Part shown: in pieces, positions 5,686 through 26,839 of the stretch
Layout: each line of letters starts with the position of its first letter
Position numbering within the stretch: the first letter of the stretch is position 1
Assembly (NCBI GenBank): GCA_965222215.1
Contig: OZ244931.1
Location: 1,716,546-1,780,545 of the forward strand
DNA length: 64,000 nucleotides
Direction of reading: 5' to 3'
Source of the DNA: Alphaproteobacteria bacterium
GTDB taxonomy: Bacteria > Pseudomonadota > Alphaproteobacteria > UBA6615
Position numbers and translations under genes: made by a program
The notes under the pieces: model-generated
Databases searched by the model: none
Seen by the model: the letters and a program-made list of their open reading frames with translations, nothing else
What the model was told of the DNA's origin: nothing

Positions 5686-5949
5686 ATGGCTGCTGAACGG
5701 TCACAGAACGTTCAGGACGTTTTCCTGAACCACATTCGCAAGAACAAAACGCCCGTGACGATCTTTCTGGTCAACGGGGTGAAACTGCAGGGTGTCGTCA
5801 CGTGGTTCGACAACTTCTGCGTTCTCTTGCGGCGCGACGCGCACTCGCAACTGGTTTACAAGCACGCGATTTCGACGGTGATGCCCTCGATGCCCGTGCA
5901 GCTGTTCGAACCGGAAACCGAAGATCACGAGGCCGAAGCGGCCGAGTAG
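5686..5949 (+). CDS. hfq: RNA chaperone Hfq
   Basis: Sm1/Sm2 motifs [26 protein letters not shown]...YKHAIST; AG-rich RBS (ggctgaggtaaaaaag) before ATG. Confidence 0.95.
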
Positions 5950-5958
5950 TCGCCGGTT

Positions 5959-7308
5959 TTGGCGTACAACGACCCGCACACCAACGGAAGCGACGGCGGT
6001 CACCAGACGCGCGCTGTCGTTCTGCAACCCGTGATACGGGACCGTGGCCCGCATTCGGCGGATCGCGACCCCGAGGTGTTGCTCGAAGAAACGGCCGGTC
6101 TTGCCCGTGCCATCGACCTCGACCTGGCCGCGTGCCGCGTGGTCACGCTCAACCGTCCCCGGCCGGCAACGCTGTTCGGCGAAGGTGTCGTCGACGAGGT
6201 GCATGACCGTGTCAAAGCCGAGGAGGCGGGCCTCGTAATCGTCGGCGGCCCGCTTTCGCCGGTGCAGCAACGCAACCTCGAACGTGCCTGGTCCTGCAAG
6301 GTGATCGACCGGACGGGGCTTATCCTCGAAATATTCGGTGCCCGCGCACGCACCCGGGAAGGCCAGCTGCAGGTTGAACTTGCAGCGTTGACCTATCAAC
6401 GCAGCCGTCTTGTGAGGTCCTGGACCCATCTTGAGCGTCAGCGCGGCGGGTTCGGATTCGTGGGCGGGCCGGGTGAAAGCCAGATCGAACTCGACCGCCG
6501 GATGATCGACGACCGGATCGCCCGGCTCAAACGTGACCTGGACCAGGTTCGCCGCACGCGGGGATTGCACAGACGGGCCCGGGAACGGGTGCCGTATCCG
6601 CTGATCGCGCTTGTCGGCTACACGAACGCGGGCAAATCGACCCTGTTCAACCGGCTGACGCGCGCCGATATCTACGCTGAAGACATGCTGTTCGCGACCC
6701 TCGATCCAACGATGCGCCAGCTCGAACTCCCGTCGGGCAGGACCGCGATTCTTTCAGATACGGTCGGCTTTATCTCTGAACTGCCCCACGACCTCGTGGC
6801 CGCGTTCCGCGCGACCCTCGAGGAAGTCGTGGCGGCGGATATCATACTTCACGTCCGCGATTGCGCCGATCCCGATACAGAAGGCCAGCGGCAGGACGTC
6901 GAGGAAATCCTGAAGAACCTCATCGCGCAGCCGGATCAGGATGACGACGGGAAGTCGCCGGTCCGTATTGAGGTCCTGAACAAGACCGATCTGCTTCCGC
7001 CTGACGAACTGGTGGAGATCCAGGCGCGCGCCGATCGATCGGCGGACATTGTCGCGCTGTCTGCCGCGAGCGGTGCTGGATGCGATGCATTGCTGACGAC
7101 GATCGATGATGCCCTTGCGGCGTTTGACTCGGTGGCCGATGTCGAAGTGGATTTGAGTGACGGCGCGACCATGGCCTGGCTTTACGAAAAAGGTGAAGTC
7201 CTGGCGCGGGAGGACGACGGCATGCAAAGCCGTTTGACCGTGCGCCTGGCACCCCGCGACCTTGCCCGTTTGCACAAACAGCAAGGCAAAGACGGTTCAT
7301 CCGCATGA
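5959..7308 (+). CDS. hflX: GTPase HflX
   Basis: G1 GYTNAGKST, G3 DTVGF, G4 NKTD; directly downstream of hfq; start codon uncertain (TTG at ORF-track start). Confidence 0.85.
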   Translation: MAYNDPHTNGSDGGHQTRAVVLQPVIRDRGPHSADRDPEVLLEETAGLARAIDLDLAACRVVTLNRPRPATLFGEGVVDEVHDRVKAEEAGLVIVGGPLSPVQQRNLERAWSCKVIDRTGLILEIFGARARTREGQLQVELAALTYQRSRLVRSWTHLERQRGGFGFVGGPGESQIELDRRMIDDRIARLKRDLDQVRRTRGLHRRARERVPYPLIALVGYTNAGKSTLFNRLTRADIYAEDMLFATLDPTMRQLELPSGRTAILSDTVGFISELPHDLVAAFRATLEEVVAADIILHVRDCADPDTEGQRQDVEEILKNLIAQPDQDDDGKSPVRIEVLNKTDLLPPDELVEIQARADRSADIVALSAASGAGCDALLTTIDDALAAFDSVADVEVDLSDGATMAWLYEKGEVLAREDDGMQSRLTVRLAPRDLARLHKQQGKDGSSA

Positions 7309-14785: not shown

Positions 14786-15201
14786 ACGAATTCGATCGTG
14801 GCAATCGCAAAAGCTGTCTTGAAGGTGTCGCACCACACGACCACGCTGCCCCAGTCACGCACATTCACGCCGGCGGGCACCGAATAGTTCTGTGTGCCGG
14901 TGAGGGCCTGGAGTTTTCCCAGCGAGGTGAACCCGGCCGTCACGTCTTCGGGGAATAGCGGGTCCGGCTCCTTCACCAGATAAACGAAGAGGTTGGGGCC
15001 GGGGACGATCTCCATATCGATCATGTTCACCACGAACTGTCGCCCCGGCTTTCCCGAAATCGAAAGCATGCCCGACCCGCGATGAACCGGATCGCCGTCG
15101 CGGAAATTCCCCGTCGCGATCACCGGTGTGCCCCCGGCGTGTGCAAAGGCAGGGACCGCTGTGAACGCCGCCGCCGAGCCCAGGAAAGTCCTGCGTCGCA
15201 T
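14782..15201 (-). CDS. Tat-secreted DM13-domain protein
   Basis: Twin-arginine signal MRRRTFLGSAAAFTAVPAFA; DM13-like pattern GNFRDGDPVHRGSG...GPNLFVYL; start overlaps upstream stop (TGATG). Confidence 0.6.
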   Translation of the reverse strand: MRRRTFLGSAAAFTAVPAFAHAGGTPVIATGNFRDGDPVHRGSGMLSISGKPGRQFVVNMIDMEIVPGPNLFVYLVKEPDPLFPEDVTAGFTSLGKLQALTGTQNYSVPAGVNVRDWGSVVVWCDTFKTAFAIATIEFV

Positions 15202-16208
15202 CAGGCGTCTGCGTTCGGAAGGATAACGACCTTGCCGCTACGCTCGCCCCGCATGGCGTGGGCGACCGCTTCCTTGATTTTTGCAAGCGGATAGGTGGCT
15301 TCGACGGCCGCGTGCATGCGTCCCTCGGCGATATAGCCGGCCAGTTCGCCGTACACCGCGGCCCGCTCTTCCGGCGTCGAATATTTGCGCAGCCAGAGCG
15401 TGAGCCACACACCCGTCAGTGTGATTTCGCGGAAGATGATGTCGTCGGGCAGCAGTTTGCACGGTTCGCCCGACAGCAGGCCGTAATTCGCGATCGTGCC
15501 GCCATCGGCCAGGCAGTCGGCAAGATGCTGGGTGGCATCGCTGGCGACGGCGTCGATGGCAAGCTTGATCGGTGCGCCGTCCGTCGCGGCCTTCACCCGT
15601 TCGCCAAGGTCGGGCCCGTCGACGGCGCACACATCGCCGCCCGCCTTCGCAATGAAGTCTTCCAGTCCCGGCCGGCGAACGACGTTGACGGTCTTCAGCC
15701 CGTAGATTTTCGCCAGCTGCATCGTGTACTGGCCGACCGCCGAGTTGGCCGCATTCTGGATCACCCAGTCGCCGGGTTCCAGGTCGACCACGCTCTTGAG
15801 GAGGAGCCAGGCCGTCGGCGGGTTGGCCATGATCATGGCCATCTGTATCGGGTCGCCTTCGTCGGGAAAGGTGACAGCGATTGTGTCGGCCTTGACCACG
15901 ACCTGTTGCCGCCAGGTGCCGGAGTAGGGCGGGATCATGACCCGGTCGCCGGGTTTCACGTTGGTCACGTCTTTGCCAACCGCCCCGATGATCCCGATGC
16001 CCTCGGCACCGGGGACGGCCGGCAGGTCCGGCTGGACGCCGTAGCCGCCCGAAAGCGTCAGGAGGTGGGACGGATTGATCGCCGCCGCTTCGACGTCGAT
16101 CAGTGCCTCGTCGTCGCCGACAGGCGCCGTCTCCATGTCCACCAGTTCAACCACATCGGGCGGGTGCCCGGTCCGGGCGAACCGGACCGCCTTCTTCACG
16201 TCACTCAT
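15201..16208 (-). CDS. MDR-superfamily NAD(P)H-dependent oxidoreductase (quinone oxidoreductase / enoyl reductase-like)
   Basis: GroES-like N-domain plus Rossmann AANSAVGQY motif; 335 aa. Confidence 0.75.
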   Translation of the reverse strand: MSDVKKAVRFARTGHPPDVVELVDMETAPVGDDEALIDVEAAAINPSHLLTLSGGYGVQPDLPAVPGAEGIGIIGAVGKDVTNVKPGDRVMIPPYSGTWRQQVVVKADTIAVTFPDEGDPIQMAMIMANPPTAWLLLKSVVDLEPGDWVIQNAANSAVGQYTMQLAKIYGLKTVNVVRRPGLEDFIAKAGGDVCAVDGPDLGERVKAATDGAPIKLAIDAVASDATQHLADCLADGGTIANYGLLSGEPCKLLPDDIIFREITLTGVWLTLWLRKYSTPEERAAVYGELAGYIAEGRMHAAVEATYPLAKIKEAVAHAMRGERSGKVVILPNADA

Positions 16209-16232
16209 GTTTTGCGGACTCCTGAAAGCCGG

Positions 16233-16574
16233 TCAGGCGGCGGATTTGATCTCGCCCTGTTCGTTGTCGACGATCACGGGTGTTTCGAAGATCGCTATTT
16301 CCGGGTCGGCGCCGCACAGCTCGCGAATGGCTTCGCGCCAGGGGCCGCCCTCGGCATAGACCTTCTCGGCCGCTTCACGGCTTTCCCATGTGTACACGCC
16401 GCCGCGAATGCCGCGCTCGCCGTCGTACAGGAAGTTCTTGCGGATCAGCCCCGCCATGCCTTCGAACTTGCCGGCGGCCGACTTAATGTGAGCGATCACG
16501 TCGTCGCGCGAAGCGCCCTGCGTCACGTTGAACTGAACGATGGCTGTAATCATCTGGGTCGGCTTCCTGCTCAC
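16233..16574 (-). CDS. YdhR-like (ABM/Dabb-fold putative monooxygenase) protein, paralog 1
   Basis: About 106-aa core; near-identical C-terminal half to paralog 2 (GGVYTWESREAAEKVYAEGGPWREAIR...PVIVDNEQGEIKSAA); likely true start is internal ATG (MITAIVQ). Confidence 0.65.
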   Translation of the reverse strand: MSRKPTQMITAIVQFNVTQGASRDDVIAHIKSAAGKFEGMAGLIRKNFLYDGERGIRGGVYTWESREAAEKVYAEGGPWREAIRELCGADPEIAIFETPVIVDNEQGEIKSAA

Positions 16575-16891
16575 GCGGCGGATTTAATCTCGCCTTGCTC
16601 GTTGTCGACGATCACCGGTGTGTCGAAGATCGTGATATCGGGGTCAACGCCGTAAAGATTGCGGATGGCCTCGCGCCAGGGTCCGCCTTCGGCATAGACC
16701 TTCTCGGCCGCTTCCCGGCTTTCCCAGGTGTAGACCCCGCCGCCGACGCCGCGCTCTCCGTCGAATACGAAGTTCTTGCGGATCAGGCCCGGCATGCCTT
16801 CGAACTTGGGCGCGACATTCTTCATGTTGGTGAACACCTCGTCGCGGGTCGTGCCGTCTTTGACTTTGAACTGGACAAGCGCGGTAATCAT
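16571..16891 (-). CDS. YdhR-like (ABM/Dabb-fold putative monooxygenase) protein, paralog 2
   Basis: Tandem duplicate of the downstream gene; stop overlaps start of paralog 1. Confidence 0.65.
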   Translation of the reverse strand: MITALVQFKVKDGTTRDEVFTNMKNVAPKFEGMPGLIRKNFVFDGERGVGGGVYTWESREAAEKVYAEGGPWREAIRNLYGVDPDITIFDTPVIVDNEQGEIKSAA

Positions 16892-17037
16892 CGGTGTTGT
16901 CTCCGGCTAGGATTTCAGTTTGGTGGGCATCTTGCGGCATTCGCGTGGCTCGTACAACCAAACGCCCCGTCCGGAGCCGCGTTTTGACAACCTTCGAAAG
17001 CCGACGGCCCGCTTGGCTCACGGGAAACCTCCAGGGC

Positions 17038-17898
17038 ATGGCGTGGATGCTGACCACGGCTGTCCTGATTGTCACCATGCACACCATGATCCGGCACCTT
17101 GCCGATCAGGGCATGCACCCGTTCGAGATCGGATTTTTTCGTACTTTCTTTGGAATGCCGGTGGTGGTTGTCCTGTTCTTGAAATACGGACCGGACTTGC
17201 TGCGCACCGACCAGCTTAAGGTTCATGGAATCCGCTCGTTCGGCCATGTGGTGGCGATGATGATGTTTTTTCTCGGGCTGTCGATGACGCCGCTGGCAAC
17301 GGCGAATGCGCTGGCGTTCACGGCCCCTTTGTTCGCCGCGGTTCTTGCGGTCCTGGTGCTCGGCGAGACGTTCCGCTGGCGGCGCTCGCTCGCGCTGCTC
17401 TTTGGGTTTGCCGGGACGCTGGTCATCATTCGCCCGGGTTTCGTGGATGTGGGGCTCGGGCCGATCCTCGTGGTGGCGTCGTCCTTCATCTGGGGCGTCA
17501 TCCTGATCGTGATCAAGTCGCTGGGCAAACGTGACGCGACGCCGACGATCGTGACCTACATGGTCCTGCTGATGTCGCCGCTCGCGCTCATCCCGGCGCT
17601 GTTTGTCTGGCAGTGGCCGACCCTGGAGCAGTACGCAATCCTGCTGGTGATGGGCACGATGGGGACCGTGGCGCATCTGACGCTCACCCAGGCACTTCGG
17701 GTGGGCGAGGCTGTGGTGGTTATGCCCATGGACTTCTTCAAGCTTGTCTGGGCCGCGACGCTCGGTTTTCTGATCTTCGGTGAATTGCCGGATATCTATA
17801 CGTGGATCGGCGGCATCATGATCTTTGCGAGCGCAACCTATATAGCTCTCAGAGAACGCGCGGTGAGCCGCGCGCGCCAGCAATTACCGAGAGCGTAG
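17038..17898 (+). CDS. EamA/DMT-family transporter (10 TM)
   Basis: Two EamA-type repeats; start placed at internal ATG (MAWMLTTAV) since ORF-track N-terminus is non-hydrophobic; 3-nt gap to type III PKS gene. Confidence 0.7.
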   Translation: MAWMLTTAVLIVTMHTMIRHLADQGMHPFEIGFFRTFFGMPVVVVLFLKYGPDLLRTDQLKVHGIRSFGHVVAMMMFFLGLSMTPLATANALAFTAPLFAAVLAVLVLGETFRWRRSLALLFGFAGTLVIIRPGFVDVGLGPILVVASSFIWGVILIVIKSLGKRDATPTIVTYMVLLMSPLALIPALFVWQWPTLEQYAILLVMGTMGTVAHLTLTQALRVGEAVVVMPMDFFKLVWAATLGFLIFGELPDIYTWIGGIMIFASATYIALRERAVSRARQQLPRA

Positions 17899-17901
17899 AC
17901 C

Positions 17902-18951
17902 ATGCCGGACCCCGCACATATCGCCGCTGTGGCCACGGCCGTGCCTCCCTTCATCCTCGATCAGCGGGAAGTCGTGGAACGCTCACGCGAGATCTTTGCG
18001 CCCGCCGTTCCGGGGTTCGACAGGTATACGGACGCGTATCGAAATGCCGCCGTCGAAACCCGGCATTCCTGCATGCCGATCGAGTGGTATTCGCAGCCGC
18101 ATCCGTTTTCCGAGAGAAACGATCTTTTCATCGAACACGCCGTTTCGCTCCTCACGGAGGTATCCGAGAAGTTGTTCGAGGATGCGGGTGTCGGGGCACA
18201 GGACGTCGATGCCCTTGTGGTCGCGTCGACCACGGGGGTGGCGACGCCGAGCCTGGATGCGTTGCTGATCGAACGCCTGCCGTTTCGCCGCGATGTGCAA
18301 CGCCTGCCGATCTTCGGACTTGGATGCGGCGGCGGCGTATCGGGCATGGCGCGTGCCGCGCAAATTGCGATGAGCCGTCCCGATGCATGCGTCCTGTTTC
18401 TCGTGGTTGAACTTTGCGGGCTTACGTTCCGGGTCAATGACGTCTCGAAGAGCAACATCATCGCCACCGCACTGTTCGGGGACGGGGCTGCGGGCGCATT
18501 GCTTGGATGTGGGCTCGAAGGGCCCGCCGTTAAGGGCTGGGGAGAGCATACGTGGAACGACTCACTGGATGTGATGGGCTGGGAGATCGGTGACGACGGC
18601 CTGGGCGTGCTCTTCTCGCGGGACATTCCGCACCTCGTCAGGACCAAGCTCGGCGAGCCAGCGATGAAATTTCTCGCGGGCCAGGGCCTGTCGCGGGAGG
18701 ATATCGTCAGGCATGCGTGCCATCCGGGCGGCGCCAAGGTTCTCGATGCGCTCGAAGAGATTTACGGCCTCGACCCCGGCGAGCTGGCGACAGCGCGCGA
18801 TGTCCTGCGGCGCTACGGCAACATGTCGGCCGCGACGGCCATGTTCGTTCTCGCAGAGACAATGCGCGAGCCCGACCCGGGTCCCTGGTTGATGTCGGCG
18901 CTCGGCCCGGGGTTTACCGCGACCTTCGCACTGCTGGAGTCCGCGGCATGA
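17902..18951 (+). CDS. Type III polyketide synthase (chalcone/stilbene synthase family; SrsA/BpsA/ArsB-like)
   Basis: Catalytic triad contexts GLGCGGG (Cys), HPGG (His), GNMSAAT (Asn); 349 aa. Confidence 0.85.
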   Translation: MPDPAHIAAVATAVPPFILDQREVVERSREIFAPAVPGFDRYTDAYRNAAVETRHSCMPIEWYSQPHPFSERNDLFIEHAVSLLTEVSEKLFEDAGVGAQDVDALVVASTTGVATPSLDALLIERLPFRRDVQRLPIFGLGCGGGVSGMARAAQIAMSRPDACVLFLVVELCGLTFRVNDVSKSNIIATALFGDGAAGALLGCGLEGPAVKGWGEHTWNDSLDVMGWEIGDDGLGVLFSRDIPHLVRTKLGEPAMKFLAGQGLSREDIVRHACHPGGAKVLDALEEIYGLDPGELATARDVLRRYGNMSAATAMFVLAETMREPDPGPWLMSALGPGFTATFALLESAA

Positions 18952-19451
18952 ACATCAGCCCCTGGTATCTTCTGATCGGCTTTATCGTCCTGCAGAGACT
19001 GATCGAGCTGATGGTCTCGCGCATCAACACGCGCCGCCTGCTACAGGAAGGCGCGATCGAGCACGGGGCGCGGCACTATCCGGTGATCGTCGTCCTGCAC
19101 ATGGCCTGGATTGCGAGCCTGGTTGTGTTCGTGCCCGCGGACACGCCTGTCAGCGTGTTTTTGCTGGTTGTGTTCATCGCGCTGCAACTGGCCCGAATTT
19201 GGGTGCTCGCGTCGCTCGGCCGCTACTGGACCACCAGAATTATTTCCCATCCCGACGATCCGATCGTTCGTCGCGGTCCGTTCCGTTGGGTCCGCCATCC
19301 GAATTACCTGATTGTCGAAGCGGAAATTATCGTCGTTCCGCTGATCGCCGGCGCATGGGAACTGGCGGCGATATTCGGGGGTGCGAATGCGCTGGTTCTG
19401 GCATGGCGTATCTGGGTCGAGGAAAAGGCCCTTGCGCCGCGGCGCGGCTAG
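18948..19451 (+). CDS. ICMT-family (isoprenylcysteine carboxyl methyltransferase-like) membrane methyltransferase, SrsB/BpsB-like
   Basis: ATGA overlap with PKS stop; C-terminal RHPNYL...EE motif typical of ICMT/PEMT family; 4-5 TM helices. Confidence 0.75.
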   Translation: MNISPWYLLIGFIVLQRLIELMVSRINTRRLLQEGAIEHGARHYPVIVVLHMAWIASLVVFVPADTPVSVFLLVVFIALQLARIWVLASLGRYWTTRIISHPDDPIVRRGPFRWVRHPNYLIVEAEIIVVPLIAGAWELAAIFGGANALVLAWRIWVEEKALAPRRG

Positions 19452-20476
19452 ACAAACGGATCCGGCCGTACCCTGATCAGCTGACGGCCCATATTGCGGC
19501 CTTCATACAGTCCGGTCAGCGCCGCCGGTGCGTTCTCCAGACCGTCCACGATATCCTCCCGGTACCTGATTTTGCCGTCCGAGACCCATTTCGACAGGTC
19601 GGCATGGGCTTCGGCAAACCGGGGCGCGTAGTCGAACAACAGGAATCCCTGCATCTTGATCCGGTTGACCAGGAGGTTGCGCTCAGGGCGCAGGCCGGTC
19701 GGCTGCGGGATCCAGGAGTCGGTTGCCGCGGTGCCGCAGATGGCGACGCGGCCGTGCAGGTTCACCTGCCCGAGGACCATGTCGAGAATGTCGCCACCGA
19801 CATTGTCGTAGTAGACGTCGACGCCGTCCGGGCAGGCGTCGCGGATCGCCGCATCGAGGTCGTCGCTCGCCTTGTAGTCGATCGCGGCATCGAAGCCGAA
19901 CTCATCCGTGCAGATCGCCGTCTTTTCGGGACCGCCGGCGATCCCGACGGTCCGGCAACCCTTGATTTTCGCGATCTGGCCGACGGCGCTGCCGACCGCA
20001 CCCGCTGCCGTCGATACCAGAACCGTTTCGCCCTCCTTGGGCTGGCCGATATCAAGCAGCCCGAAATACGCTGTGAATCCGTTCACGCCGAGTACGCCGA
20101 GCGCTGTCGAAATTGGCGCGGCGGCGGGATCGACCTTGCGAAATGTGGGTTGATCCGGATCCGCGACGGCGTATGCGGCCCATCCGGTATTCGCCGCCAC
20201 GACATCGCCTTCCGCAACATCCGCGTGGTTGGATTCGACGACGACGCCGACGCTGAACGAGCGCATGGTCGCGCCTGTTTCCACGCTGGCGTAGTTTCGC
20301 GCTGTGCCGATCCAGCCCTTCATCCCGGGGTCGGCCGAGACATAGACGTTGTTGATGAGCACCTCACCGTCGCCGGGTGACGGCGCGTCGTCTTCGACGA
20401 CGTCGAAGAGGTCCGGTGAGGGAAGGCCGGTGGCGCGTTCTTTCAGAACGACGCGTGTGTTTTTGTGCTGAGGCAT
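19448..20476 (-). CDS. NADP-dependent oxidoreductase, MDR family (CurA/YncB, leukotriene B4 12-hydroxydehydrogenase-like enone reductase)
   Basis: AAGAVGSAVGQIAKIKG Rossmann motif; start placed at ATG 20476 with GGAG RBS (MPQHKNTRVV). Confidence 0.75.
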   Translation of the reverse strand: MPQHKNTRVVLKERATGLPSPDLFDVVEDDAPSPGDGEVLINNVYVSADPGMKGWIGTARNYASVETGATMRSFSVGVVVESNHADVAEGDVVAANTGWAAYAVADPDQPTFRKVDPAAAPISTALGVLGVNGFTAYFGLLDIGQPKEGETVLVSTAAGAVGSAVGQIAKIKGCRTVGIAGGPEKTAICTDEFGFDAAIDYKASDDLDAAIRDACPDGVDVYYDNVGGDILDMVLGQVNLHGRVAICGTAATDSWIPQPTGLRPERNLLVNRIKMQGFLLFDYAPRFAEAHADLSKWVSDGKIRYREDIVDGLENAPAALTGLYEGRNMGRQLIRVRPDPFV

Positions 20477-22504: not shown

Positions 22505-23428
22505 TTGAGGGAACCGGCCGCCATGACTTCCGAAAACTCGCGTCCCGCCGATGCGCCGTATCGCGGCATTCTGATGATGTGCCTCGCGGTCGCGTTCTTT
22601 GCCAGCATGAATGCGTTCGTCAAGGAACTGCGCGTTCAGGAGATGCCGGTCGTCGAGATCATCTGGGGGCGCTACTTCTTCCATACGATCCTGGTTCTGT
22701 TGGTGTTTCCCAGACGTATTCCCACCCTTCTATCCGGGTCGGACAAGCCGCTGCAGATTGTCCGCTCGATACTTGTGCTGCTTGCAACCGGATGCATGTT
22801 CACCGCCGTCGGGTTCATGCCGCTGGCCGACGCCATCGCGATCACGTTTATCTCACCACTGCTGATCACGGCGTTGTCGGTGCCGTTCCTGGGCGAACGG
22901 GTCGGGGTGCGCCGATGGATTGCGGTCGCGGTCGGCTTCGCGGGGATGCTGATCATTCTCCGGCCGGGCGGCGGGCTGTTCCAGCCCGTTGCGCTACTGC
23001 CCATCGGGGTGACGGTTTTCTATGCGGCGTATCAGATCATCACCCGGCTGATCAGCCATCGCACCGATCCGATCAACTCCGTGTTCTATACAGCGATCGT
23101 CGGCGGGGTCGTGATGTCCGCGATCGTGCCGTTCTTCTGGCAGACACCGACACCGGCGCAGTGGGGGATGCTCCTGGCGGCGGGCGTGCTGGGCGGCCTC
23201 GGACACTGGGCGATTATCATCGCCTATCAGCGTGCGGAGGCGCCACTGGTTGCACCGTTCGCCTACACCGAGCTGGTCTGGGCGACGCTGCTGGGCCTGG
23301 CCGTCTTCGGCGATTTTCCGGACACATGGACGTTTGCCGGGGCGGCCGTGATCGCGGCGAGCGGGATCTATATTGTCCGGCGCGAGCAAGCCCGGCGCGA
23401 ACCGTCGCGGCGCGTTTCAGGCCGCTAG
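22505..23428 (+). CDS. EamA/DMT-family transporter
   Basis: 10 predicted TM, duplicated EamA domains; start may be ATG 22523. Confidence 0.75.
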   Translation: MREPAAMTSENSRPADAPYRGILMMCLAVAFFASMNAFVKELRVQEMPVVEIIWGRYFFHTILVLLVFPRRIPTLLSGSDKPLQIVRSILVLLATGCMFTAVGFMPLADAIAITFISPLLITALSVPFLGERVGVRRWIAVAVGFAGMLIILRPGGGLFQPVALLPIGVTVFYAAYQIITRLISHRTDPINSVFYTAIVGGVVMSAIVPFFWQTPTPAQWGMLLAAGVLGGLGHWAIIIAYQRAEAPLVAPFAYTELVWATLLGLAVFGDFPDTWTFAGAAVIAASGIYIVRREQARREPSRRVSGR

Positions 23429-24109: not shown

Positions 24110-24185
24110 TGGCTCCGGCGGCAGGACTCGAACCTGCGACCCAGCGATTAACAGTCGCTTGCTCTACCAACTGAGCTACGCCGGA
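24110..24185 (-). tRNA. tRNA-Asn (anticodon GTT)
   Basis: Cloverleaf folded by hand: acceptor tccggcg/cgccgga, D-arm gctc..gagc, anticodon loop ctGTTaa, T-arm gcagg ttcgagt cctgc, encoded CCA. Confidence 0.9.
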
Positions 24186-26765: not shown

Positions 26766-26839
26766 TGGAGGCCCGGGCCGGAATCGAACCGACGTACAAG
26801 GATTTGCAGTCCTCTGCATAGCCACTCTGCCACCGGGCC
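26766..26839 (-). tRNA. tRNA-Cys (anticodon GCA)
   Basis: Hand-folded: acceptor ggcccgg/ccgggcc, anticodon loop ctGCAaa, T-loop ttcgatt, encoded CCA. Confidence 0.9.

Follow-up and report, generated by a model that had tools for sequence, protein, structure and literature searches.

A type III polyketide synthase (PKS) and a methyltransferase form a two-gene unit in BpsA/BpsB and DquA/DquB (PMC9827899, PMC5686519), and these loci, the pkqABC/srs loci and the products of all of them have been described (PMC9827899, PMC5686519, PMC5916927, PMC9927152). A third gene, encoding a hydroxylase/oxidoreductase (SrsC/PkqC), makes the srs/pkq operons alkylquinone pathways (PMC9927152, PMC5916927), while the ars operon couples its PKSs with the fatty acid synthase ArsA, which supplies the starter (PMC6274091). 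The roles of phenolic lipids in these and other bacteria include alternate respiratory quinones (mycobacteria, Streptomyces), cyst-coat lipids (Azotobacter) and sporulation/biofilm signals (Bacillus). Here, we analyse a locus of this kind in a stretch of 64,000 nucleotides, hereafter the window, from Alphaproteobacteria bacterium (lineage UBA6615; assembly GCA_965222215.1, contig OZ244931.1, positions 1,716,546 to 1,780,545 of the forward strand). Three co-directional genes (16984-19451, numbered from the first letter of the window) encode an EamA/DMT permease, a type III PKS and an ICMT-family membrane methyltransferase.

We regard the locus as probably a two-gene phenolic-lipid unit that sits behind a backbone EamA gene and is transcribed most likely from the conserved promoter region of that gene. 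The module itself is ordinary and has already been auto-annotated; its operon context is slightly unusual and lineage-specific. A search of the literature found no paper that characterises these alphaproteobacterial enzymes experimentally, and none that links a type III PKS with EamA. The main features are collected in table 1, and the loci used for comparison carry labels beginning with L.

Table 1. Features of the locus, with positions in the window.
Feature	Position	Strand	Remarks
Type III polyketide synthase, long-chain alkylresorcinol/alkylpyrone synthase type	17902..18951	+	349 aa; Pfam, PDB match, triad
ICMT-family integral-membrane SAM-dependent O-methyltransferase (SAM, S-adenosylmethionine)	18948..19451	+	167 aa; five predicted helices
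EamA/DMT-family permease	16984..17898	+	304 aa; Pfam EamA 5.1e-30, two domains
Shine-Dalgarno-like CCGGAG and EamA TTG/GTG start (TTG 16984)	16971..16986	+	Conserved in orthologues
Conserved intergenic motif GGCATnTTGCGGCAnTCG...CGyACAAC	16926..16958	+	Between divergent ydhR-like gene and EamA; 15-region alignment
PIG3-type quinone oxidoreductase (QOR) and two tandem ydhR-like (ABM-type) genes	15201-16891	minus	Divergent from EamA

The synthase and its membrane partner

The PKS matches the Pfam domains Chal_sti_synt_N (2.3e-19, 70.2 bits) and Chal_sti_synt_C (3.7e-15, 56.7 bits), both of which have a gathering score of 27. Its closest solved relative is Mycobacterium tuberculosis Pks11 (PDB 4jao; 2.5e-57, 198 bits, residues 7-345 aligned), followed by THNS (1.7e-38, 136 bits), CylI and Pks18. 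An earlier note on this DNA, made from its letters and open reading frames (ORFs), had recognised the contexts of a Cys/His/Asn triad, and mapping on Pks11 finds all three residues intact. Cys142 pairs with Cys138 of Pks11 (Ser in the mutant entry 4jat), His274 lies within CHPGG and Asn307 within YGNMS, and all three are invariant across an alignment of 21 relatives (59-85% identity).

Two further positions bear on substrate and product. In a fragment search, Trp227 aligns with the W281 position of ArsB, which is also that of the Trp introduced in ArsC G284W (3vs9); this mutant is matched at 4.6e-5 versus 3.2e-3 for wild-type ArsC (3vs8), and Pks11 likewise carries a Trp here (MGW). In ArsB, this Trp is the residue that sets cyclisation specificity to the resorcinol type (PMC6274091). 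Lys279 occupies the His+5 position, where a Lys has been tied to starters bound to an acyl carrier protein (ACP) (PMC9827899). Among NCBIfam models, the best match is DpgA, which at 138 bits (cut-off 425) places the protein at the family level only; the Joint Genome Institute (JGI) annotation of its relatives reads ‘alkylresorcinol/alkylpyrone synthase’. Judging from what is known of the family, the PKS would turn fatty acyl starters into alkylresorcinols or alkylpyrones.

The window is 99.97% identical over 6.9 kb to contig_58 of ENA ERZ25074479 (L139). A G-run that reads GGGG in the window (18009-18012) reads GGGGG in L139 (2935-2939), where it shifts the PKS frame and cuts the call to 292 aa. 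Either the extra G is a sequencing error in a homopolymer, or it marks a genuine pseudogene allele.

The gene downstream of the PKS had been described as encoding a polytopic ICMT/PEMT-family methyltransferase, and Pfam, motifs and a structural model all bear out the ICMT family. ICMT scores 3.9e-26 (91.7 bits) versus 1.9e-7 (31.9 bits) for PEMT; a closer kinship to the phospholipid-type PEMT is what the earlier note had named as speaking against its reading. An AlphaFold2 model built on an alignment of 28 relatives (pLDDT 87) has five long helices, and the RHPNY and EE motifs align with those of Ma-ICMT, so that both the ICMT fold and the cofactor-site motifs are present. Across the family, RHPNY is nearly invariant (H, P, N and Y fully), and within the EE pair the first glutamate alone is invariant. 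The equivalog model for protein-S-isoprenylcysteine O-methyltransferase (NCBIfam NF040696) is not reached (21 bits, cut-off 160). By these scores the enzyme has the ICMT fold but would not be classed as a prenylcysteine methyltransferase. Because its genomic partner is a PKS, its substrate is more plausibly a phenolic lipid than a prenylated protein.

A scan with one genome per species returned at least 589 loci with PKS relatives, the majority labelled as alphaproteobacterial metagenome-assembled genomes (MAGs), and the best 80 of these species-level loci were examined. An ICMT homologue lies directly downstream of the PKS and on the same strand in 78 of the 80, two as partial matches. That is, the PKS-ICMT pair is very widespread in Alphaproteobacteria. 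Together with the Pfam and PDB matches, this order of genes sustains the architecture of BpsA/BpsB and SrsA/SrsB that the earlier note had seen here. Beyond the pair nothing is conserved: no family recurs in more than 3 of 60 downstream neighbours, and the 69 upstream neighbours are mixed apart from DUF502 (17) and EamA (5). The nearest labelled relatives are marine (a Saanich Inlet Rhodospirillaceae bacterium, a Fram Strait MAG, TARA and estuarine contigs), and the relatives of the PKS agree with the alphaproteobacterial host proposed before.

In the commonest upstream context, the DUF502 membrane-protein gene is divergent and lies next to recG (e.g. L004, L006, L010, L026, L038, L041, L049, L057 and L082). 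The same context occurs in MAGs labelled Eremiobacterota, Verrucomicrobiota and Acidobacteriota, which suggests mis-binned alphaproteobacterial contigs or the transfer of a larger block. We therefore do not claim the multi-phylum spread as evidence of horizontal transfer, given that these MAGs share an alphaproteobacterial context and may be mis-binned. One pair of loci differs by an insertion: L083 (7219-8124) encodes a PKS protein identical to that of L082 and has an insertion sequence (IS) transposase (rve) between PKS and ICMT, which shortens the ICMT call to 133 aa.

The permease gene upstream

The three genes are tightly spaced. The EamA stop codon (TAG, 17896-17898) is separated from the PKS ATG (17902) by the 3-nt spacer ACC, and the PKS stop (TGA, 18949-18951) and the methyltransferase start (ATG, 18948) overlap in ATGA (18948-18951). 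At the far end, the methyltransferase stop (TAG, 19449-19451) shares a CTAG with the stop of a convergent reductase gene on the minus strand (19448-19450). All of these ORFs and junctions were seen as the earlier note had described them. In the window, EamA and PKS happen to stand in one reading frame with TAG ACC between them, and in relatives the two genes overlap in different frames (by -1 or -4 nt); the in-frame arrangement is probably without significance.

The start of the permease gene has to be revised. It had been placed at ATG 17038, and TTG 16984, 54 nt further upstream, is most likely the true start. The peptide encoded upstream of the ATG (..PAWLTGNLQGM..) is kept in orthologues with synonymous third-position changes, a conserved GGAG stands 7 nt upstream of a conserved TTG/GTG start, and the 304-aa product matches a public gene-call record exactly. 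The permease does not reach the NCBIfam subfamilies 2A78 (59.6 bits, cut-off 230) or YddG (26.4 bits, cut-off 300). A second EamA paralogue (22505-23428, plus strand) lies about 3 kb downstream in the window, with some 30-34% identity to the first, and its counterparts occupy an equivalent position in L001, L002 and numerous metagenome contigs.

Upstream of the start lies the conserved intergenic motif of table 1. The motif does not match the sigma-70 consensus. It is clear in L100 and partly recognisable in L105, two related loci that have no PKS, and for this reason it belongs to EamA; it is a candidate promoter/operator of an EamA-led transcription unit. An Rfam search of 16500-19700 (E <= 1) found neither a riboswitch nor any other known RNA ahead of the operon, and a scan of the intergenic regions for consensus promoters and terminators gave nothing informative, with terminator-like matches within shuffle expectation.

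How far is the permease tied to the PKS? An orthologue of the window permease precedes the PKS in only three of the 80 species-level loci (L001-L003), and also in L081 and L084. A search with the EamA protein as query found the PKS behind EamA in 22 of the 24 close metagenome contigs (>=75% EamA identity). In a neighbour-joining tree the EamA-linked PKSs group as a single clade (18 distinct tips), whose sister, from a Minwuia MAG (L007), has no EamA. The stop codon of EamA and the start of the PKS overlap (ATGA or TGATG) in about 20 contigs of the clade, and the overlap is maintained in members down to 62% EamA identity. Gaps occur in the window (3 nt), L102 (8 nt), L084 (70 nt) and L081 (1455 nt, holding a second EamA and a DUF1232 gene); when overlaps and spacers of 3-8 nt are counted together, they account for about 22 of 26 clade contigs. 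The tight joining of EamA to the PKS reported earlier is thus conserved, but inside one monophyletic marine clade only. The earlier note had asked whether the order EamA-PKS-methyltransferase is kept in relatives: it is in this clade, and it is not in 77 of the 80 species-level loci.

A PKS promoter embedded in the 3' end of EamA was considered and rejected. Third codon positions in that part are conserved at 0.56-0.64, where the mean for the gene is 0.63, and this lack of a rise argues against such a promoter. Given the tight junctions, the missing signal of an internal promoter and the conserved motif and Shine-Dalgarno sequence upstream of EamA, the simplest interpretation for the clade is that EamA, PKS and ICMT are co-transcribed, with the EamA promoter driving all three.

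Co-transcription raises the question of export. The earlier note proposed a dedicated lipid exporter, that is, an EamA permease recruited as the leading gene of the operon that would flip or export the O-methylated alkylresorcinol/alkylpyrone out of the cytoplasmic membrane, so that the product acts outside the cell. The junction data are on its side, both in the stop/start overlap kept across the clade and in the missing internal promoter, and L081 retains two EamA genes beside the pair. If it were true, no transporter dedicated to bacterial type III PKS lipids would have been known before this one, and the lipids would act in the outer membrane or outside the cell (e.g. as signal or allelochemical) and not solely in the inner membrane. 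The bps, dqu, srs and pkq loci that have been characterised, however, contain no transporter (PMC9827899, PMC9927152).

Two loci without the PKS also tell against a dedicated exporter. L100 (MDTE01196548.1, 49 kb) carries QOR, two ydhR-like genes, EamA (78% identity), a CurA-like reductase (82%) and PqiA, with no PKS or ICMT. Its EamA stop overlaps an ATG that opens 29 codons which clearly stem from the N-terminus of the PKS (L100 MTDYGYIGAATTAVPKHILDQREMVVRSR versus window ..IAAVATAVPPFILDQREVVERSR). Compared with L092, its closest PKS-bearing relative, L100 has a clean deletion of about 1.46 kb that runs from around PKS codon 29 to the last ICMT codons; the deletion site is at 5846-5975. L100 has thus lost PKS-ICMT, with the permease and both flanks left intact. 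The gene order is also kept in L105, a relative of lower G+C content, from ydhR through EamA (58%), a second DMT gene and the reductase to PqiA and CMD, and there too the PKS is missing. Taken together, the retention of EamA in both loci, its upstream motif (clear in L100, partial in L105) and the variable CurA-like gene mark EamA as a backbone gene: QOR/ydhR/EamA/.../CurA/PqiA is a stretch of chromosomal backbone that some loci carry with the PKS-ICMT pair and others without it.

The picture is less simple when EamA proteins in general are considered. A search with a profile built from diverse EamA proteins found nine EamA-like ORFs within 1.5 kb of PKS-ICMT (231 kb) and two in 597 kb of distal flanks. 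Genomes of this kind commonly contain DMT genes, and the nine ORFs amount to some four independent events, one each in the window clade, Caulobacteraceae and L046 and one for an additional gene of L003. The Caulobacteraceae gene (L011, L012, L017 and L034) lies about 880 nt from the PKS, upstream and in divergent orientation, and belongs to another subfamily with no recognisable kinship to the window permease; that of L046 (7850-8752) is convergent at a distance of 339 nt and is a clear relative of the window permease, with 43% identity; and in L003 (7799-8740) the gene is convergent, of another subfamily and likewise not a recognisable relative. Because EamA-family genes recur near the pair in some four lineages, a functional link is conceivable, and under the export reading these genes would be cases of convergent recruitment. 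Apart from the window permease and its orthologues, however, they are of mixed type, and each stands in divergent or convergent orientation, outside the PKS transcript. The recurrence is suggestive of a non-random association and is not significant, being borderline when the events are counted as independent.

The permease is not a conserved component of the PKS-ICMT module. For the window-permease orthologue we found neither co-occurrence with the module across lineages nor loss together with it, the two marks of a dedicated transporter. On balance, the exporter is unproven and disfavoured, and that EamA carries the lipid out of the membrane is doubtful. We prefer to see a phenolic-lipid pair behind a backbone gene, and three points weigh against this preference. 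First, the product class of the PKS is not readable from its sequence, because the Trp rule for resorcinol versus pyrone is only partly predictive: it breaks for DquA, which has the same Trp and makes only pyrones (PMC9827899). Second, the L100 deletion may be recent, in which case retention of EamA is weak evidence of an independent function. Third, EamA-family ORFs in the 1.5 kb around PKS-ICMT are about 12 times as dense as those of the distal flanks.

Genes on either side

The reductase gene that converges on the operon is on record as encoding 342 aa with a start at 20476 (minus strand), and its product is of the medium-chain dehydrogenase/reductase (MDR) type (Pfam ADH_N_2 and ADH_zinc_N). 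It scores 374 bits against the NCBIfam CurA model, under the cut-off of 440, so that ‘CurA-like’, the label it had been given when its overlap with the operon end was first described, is the fitting one. L002, L003 and L095-L097 lack the gene, and the PKS-less L100 and L105 carry it; it is a variable, unconserved neighbour of PKS-ICMT. On the other side, the two ydhR-like genes have an overlapping junction, and the QOR/ydhR block is syntenic in the clade and kept in L100 and L105. We considered the CurA-like, ydhR-like and QOR genes as parts of the module and rejected them, as they persist where there is no PKS and do not occur at other PKS-ICMT loci.

The same neighbours could be read as an extended redox pathway in which the ydhR-like, QOR and CurA-like proteins act on the PKS product to give an alkylquinone, as in srs/pkq. 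Polyketide quinones do need an oxidation after methylation (PMC9927152, PMC5916927), and the window offers two ydhR-like genes and a QOR divergent upstream and a reductase convergent downstream, in a block that is syntenic in close relatives. We hold this to be very improbable. Besides persisting where the PKS is missing, these genes lie on the opposite strand and are not found beside PKS-ICMT in the other 77 species; even close to the window the reductase is dispensable in the loci listed above and ydhR is missing in L081; and the locus has no flavoprotein of SrsC/PkqC type. Elsewhere in the 64 kb, the only Rfam matches at gathering score are two tRNA genes (24113-24185 and 26769-26839, minus strand).

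Proposed pathway and comparison with known systems

Family knowledge suggests the following chemistry for the phenolic-lipid pair. The PKS would take a long-chain fatty acyl starter, bound to coenzyme A (CoA) or ACP, and add two or three malonyl-CoA units on Cys142. Cyclisation would then yield an alkylpyrone and/or, as Trp227 favours, an alkylresorcinol or resorcylic acid. The head group is predicted to be O-methylated with SAM by the membrane methyltransferase of ICMT type, whose gene is translationally coupled to that of the PKS. The resulting methoxylated amphiphile would most likely remain in the cell membrane, as in characterised systems, with the pair expressed from the EamA promoter in the marine clade. 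A different product class, with the PKS making a non-lipid aromatic (tetrahydroxynaphthalene (THN), phloroglucinol or DpgA-type) and the methyltransferase acting on another substrate, has in its favour that DpgA is the best NCBIfam match and THNS the third-best solved relative, and is nonetheless highly unlikely given the DpgA score far under its cut-off, the clearly better match to Pks11 (198 versus 136 bits), the JGI labels of the relatives and the obligate membrane ICMT-type partner, a hallmark of phenolic-lipid loci (PMC9827899).

The clade is natural material for comparison, with a permease operon fusion, a clean deletion (L100) and a possible frameshift (L139), so that both the role of the lipid and its export are testable.

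Ma-ICMT (PDB 4a2n) and eukaryotic ICMT (5v7p/5vg9) are related to the window enzyme by fold and differ from it in context, as the neighbour of the window enzyme is a PKS gene. Pks11 (PDB 4jao) aligns with the window PKS at both the catalytic Cys and the Trp of MGW. Unlike the window gene, it is encoded in a cluster with type I PKS genes and is not known to have an adjacent ICMT gene. We know of no ICMT methyltransferase in the Azotobacter ars operon, and the earlier note's inclusion of ArsB/ArsC-type modules under the same architecture therefore has to be dropped. ArsB/ArsC, the cyst lipid synthases of Azotobacter vinelandii, are also long-chain alkylresorcinol/alkylpyrone type III PKSs, and it is their specificity residue that aligns with Trp227 (PMC6274091).

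In SrsABC (Streptomyces griseus) and PkqABC (Mycobacterium smegmatis and Streptomyces sp. MNU77), the PKS is likewise followed by a methyltransferase in one operon (PMC9927152, PMC5916927). A further likeness is that the window PKS is closest to the mycobacterial Pks11 lineage and has the resorcinol-associated Trp. A co-directional third gene of SrsC/PkqC type does not follow the methyltransferase in the window, nor does any family recur downstream in 60 related loci; therefore, a quinone end product is not predicted from the window locus alone.

The two-gene core is shared with BpsA/BpsB of Bacillus subtilis and DquA/DquB of Sporomusaceae, where, as in the window, the methyltransferase gene is directly downstream and translationally coupled (PMC9827899). 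DquA and the window PKS are both about 350 aa long, with triads at 141/273/306 and 142/274/307, respectively, and the window PKS shares with BpsA/DquA-type loci the Lys at His+5, the Trp at the ArsB-281 position and the ICMT-family partner (PMC9827899). The methyltransferase is likened to BpsB/SrsB/DquB by Pfam family, fold and place downstream of the PKS. Unlike the Bps/Dqu hosts, the window host is a non-sporulating, Gram-negative marine alphaproteobacterium, and unlike those stand-alone pairs, the pair in the window is joined behind an EamA permease gene.

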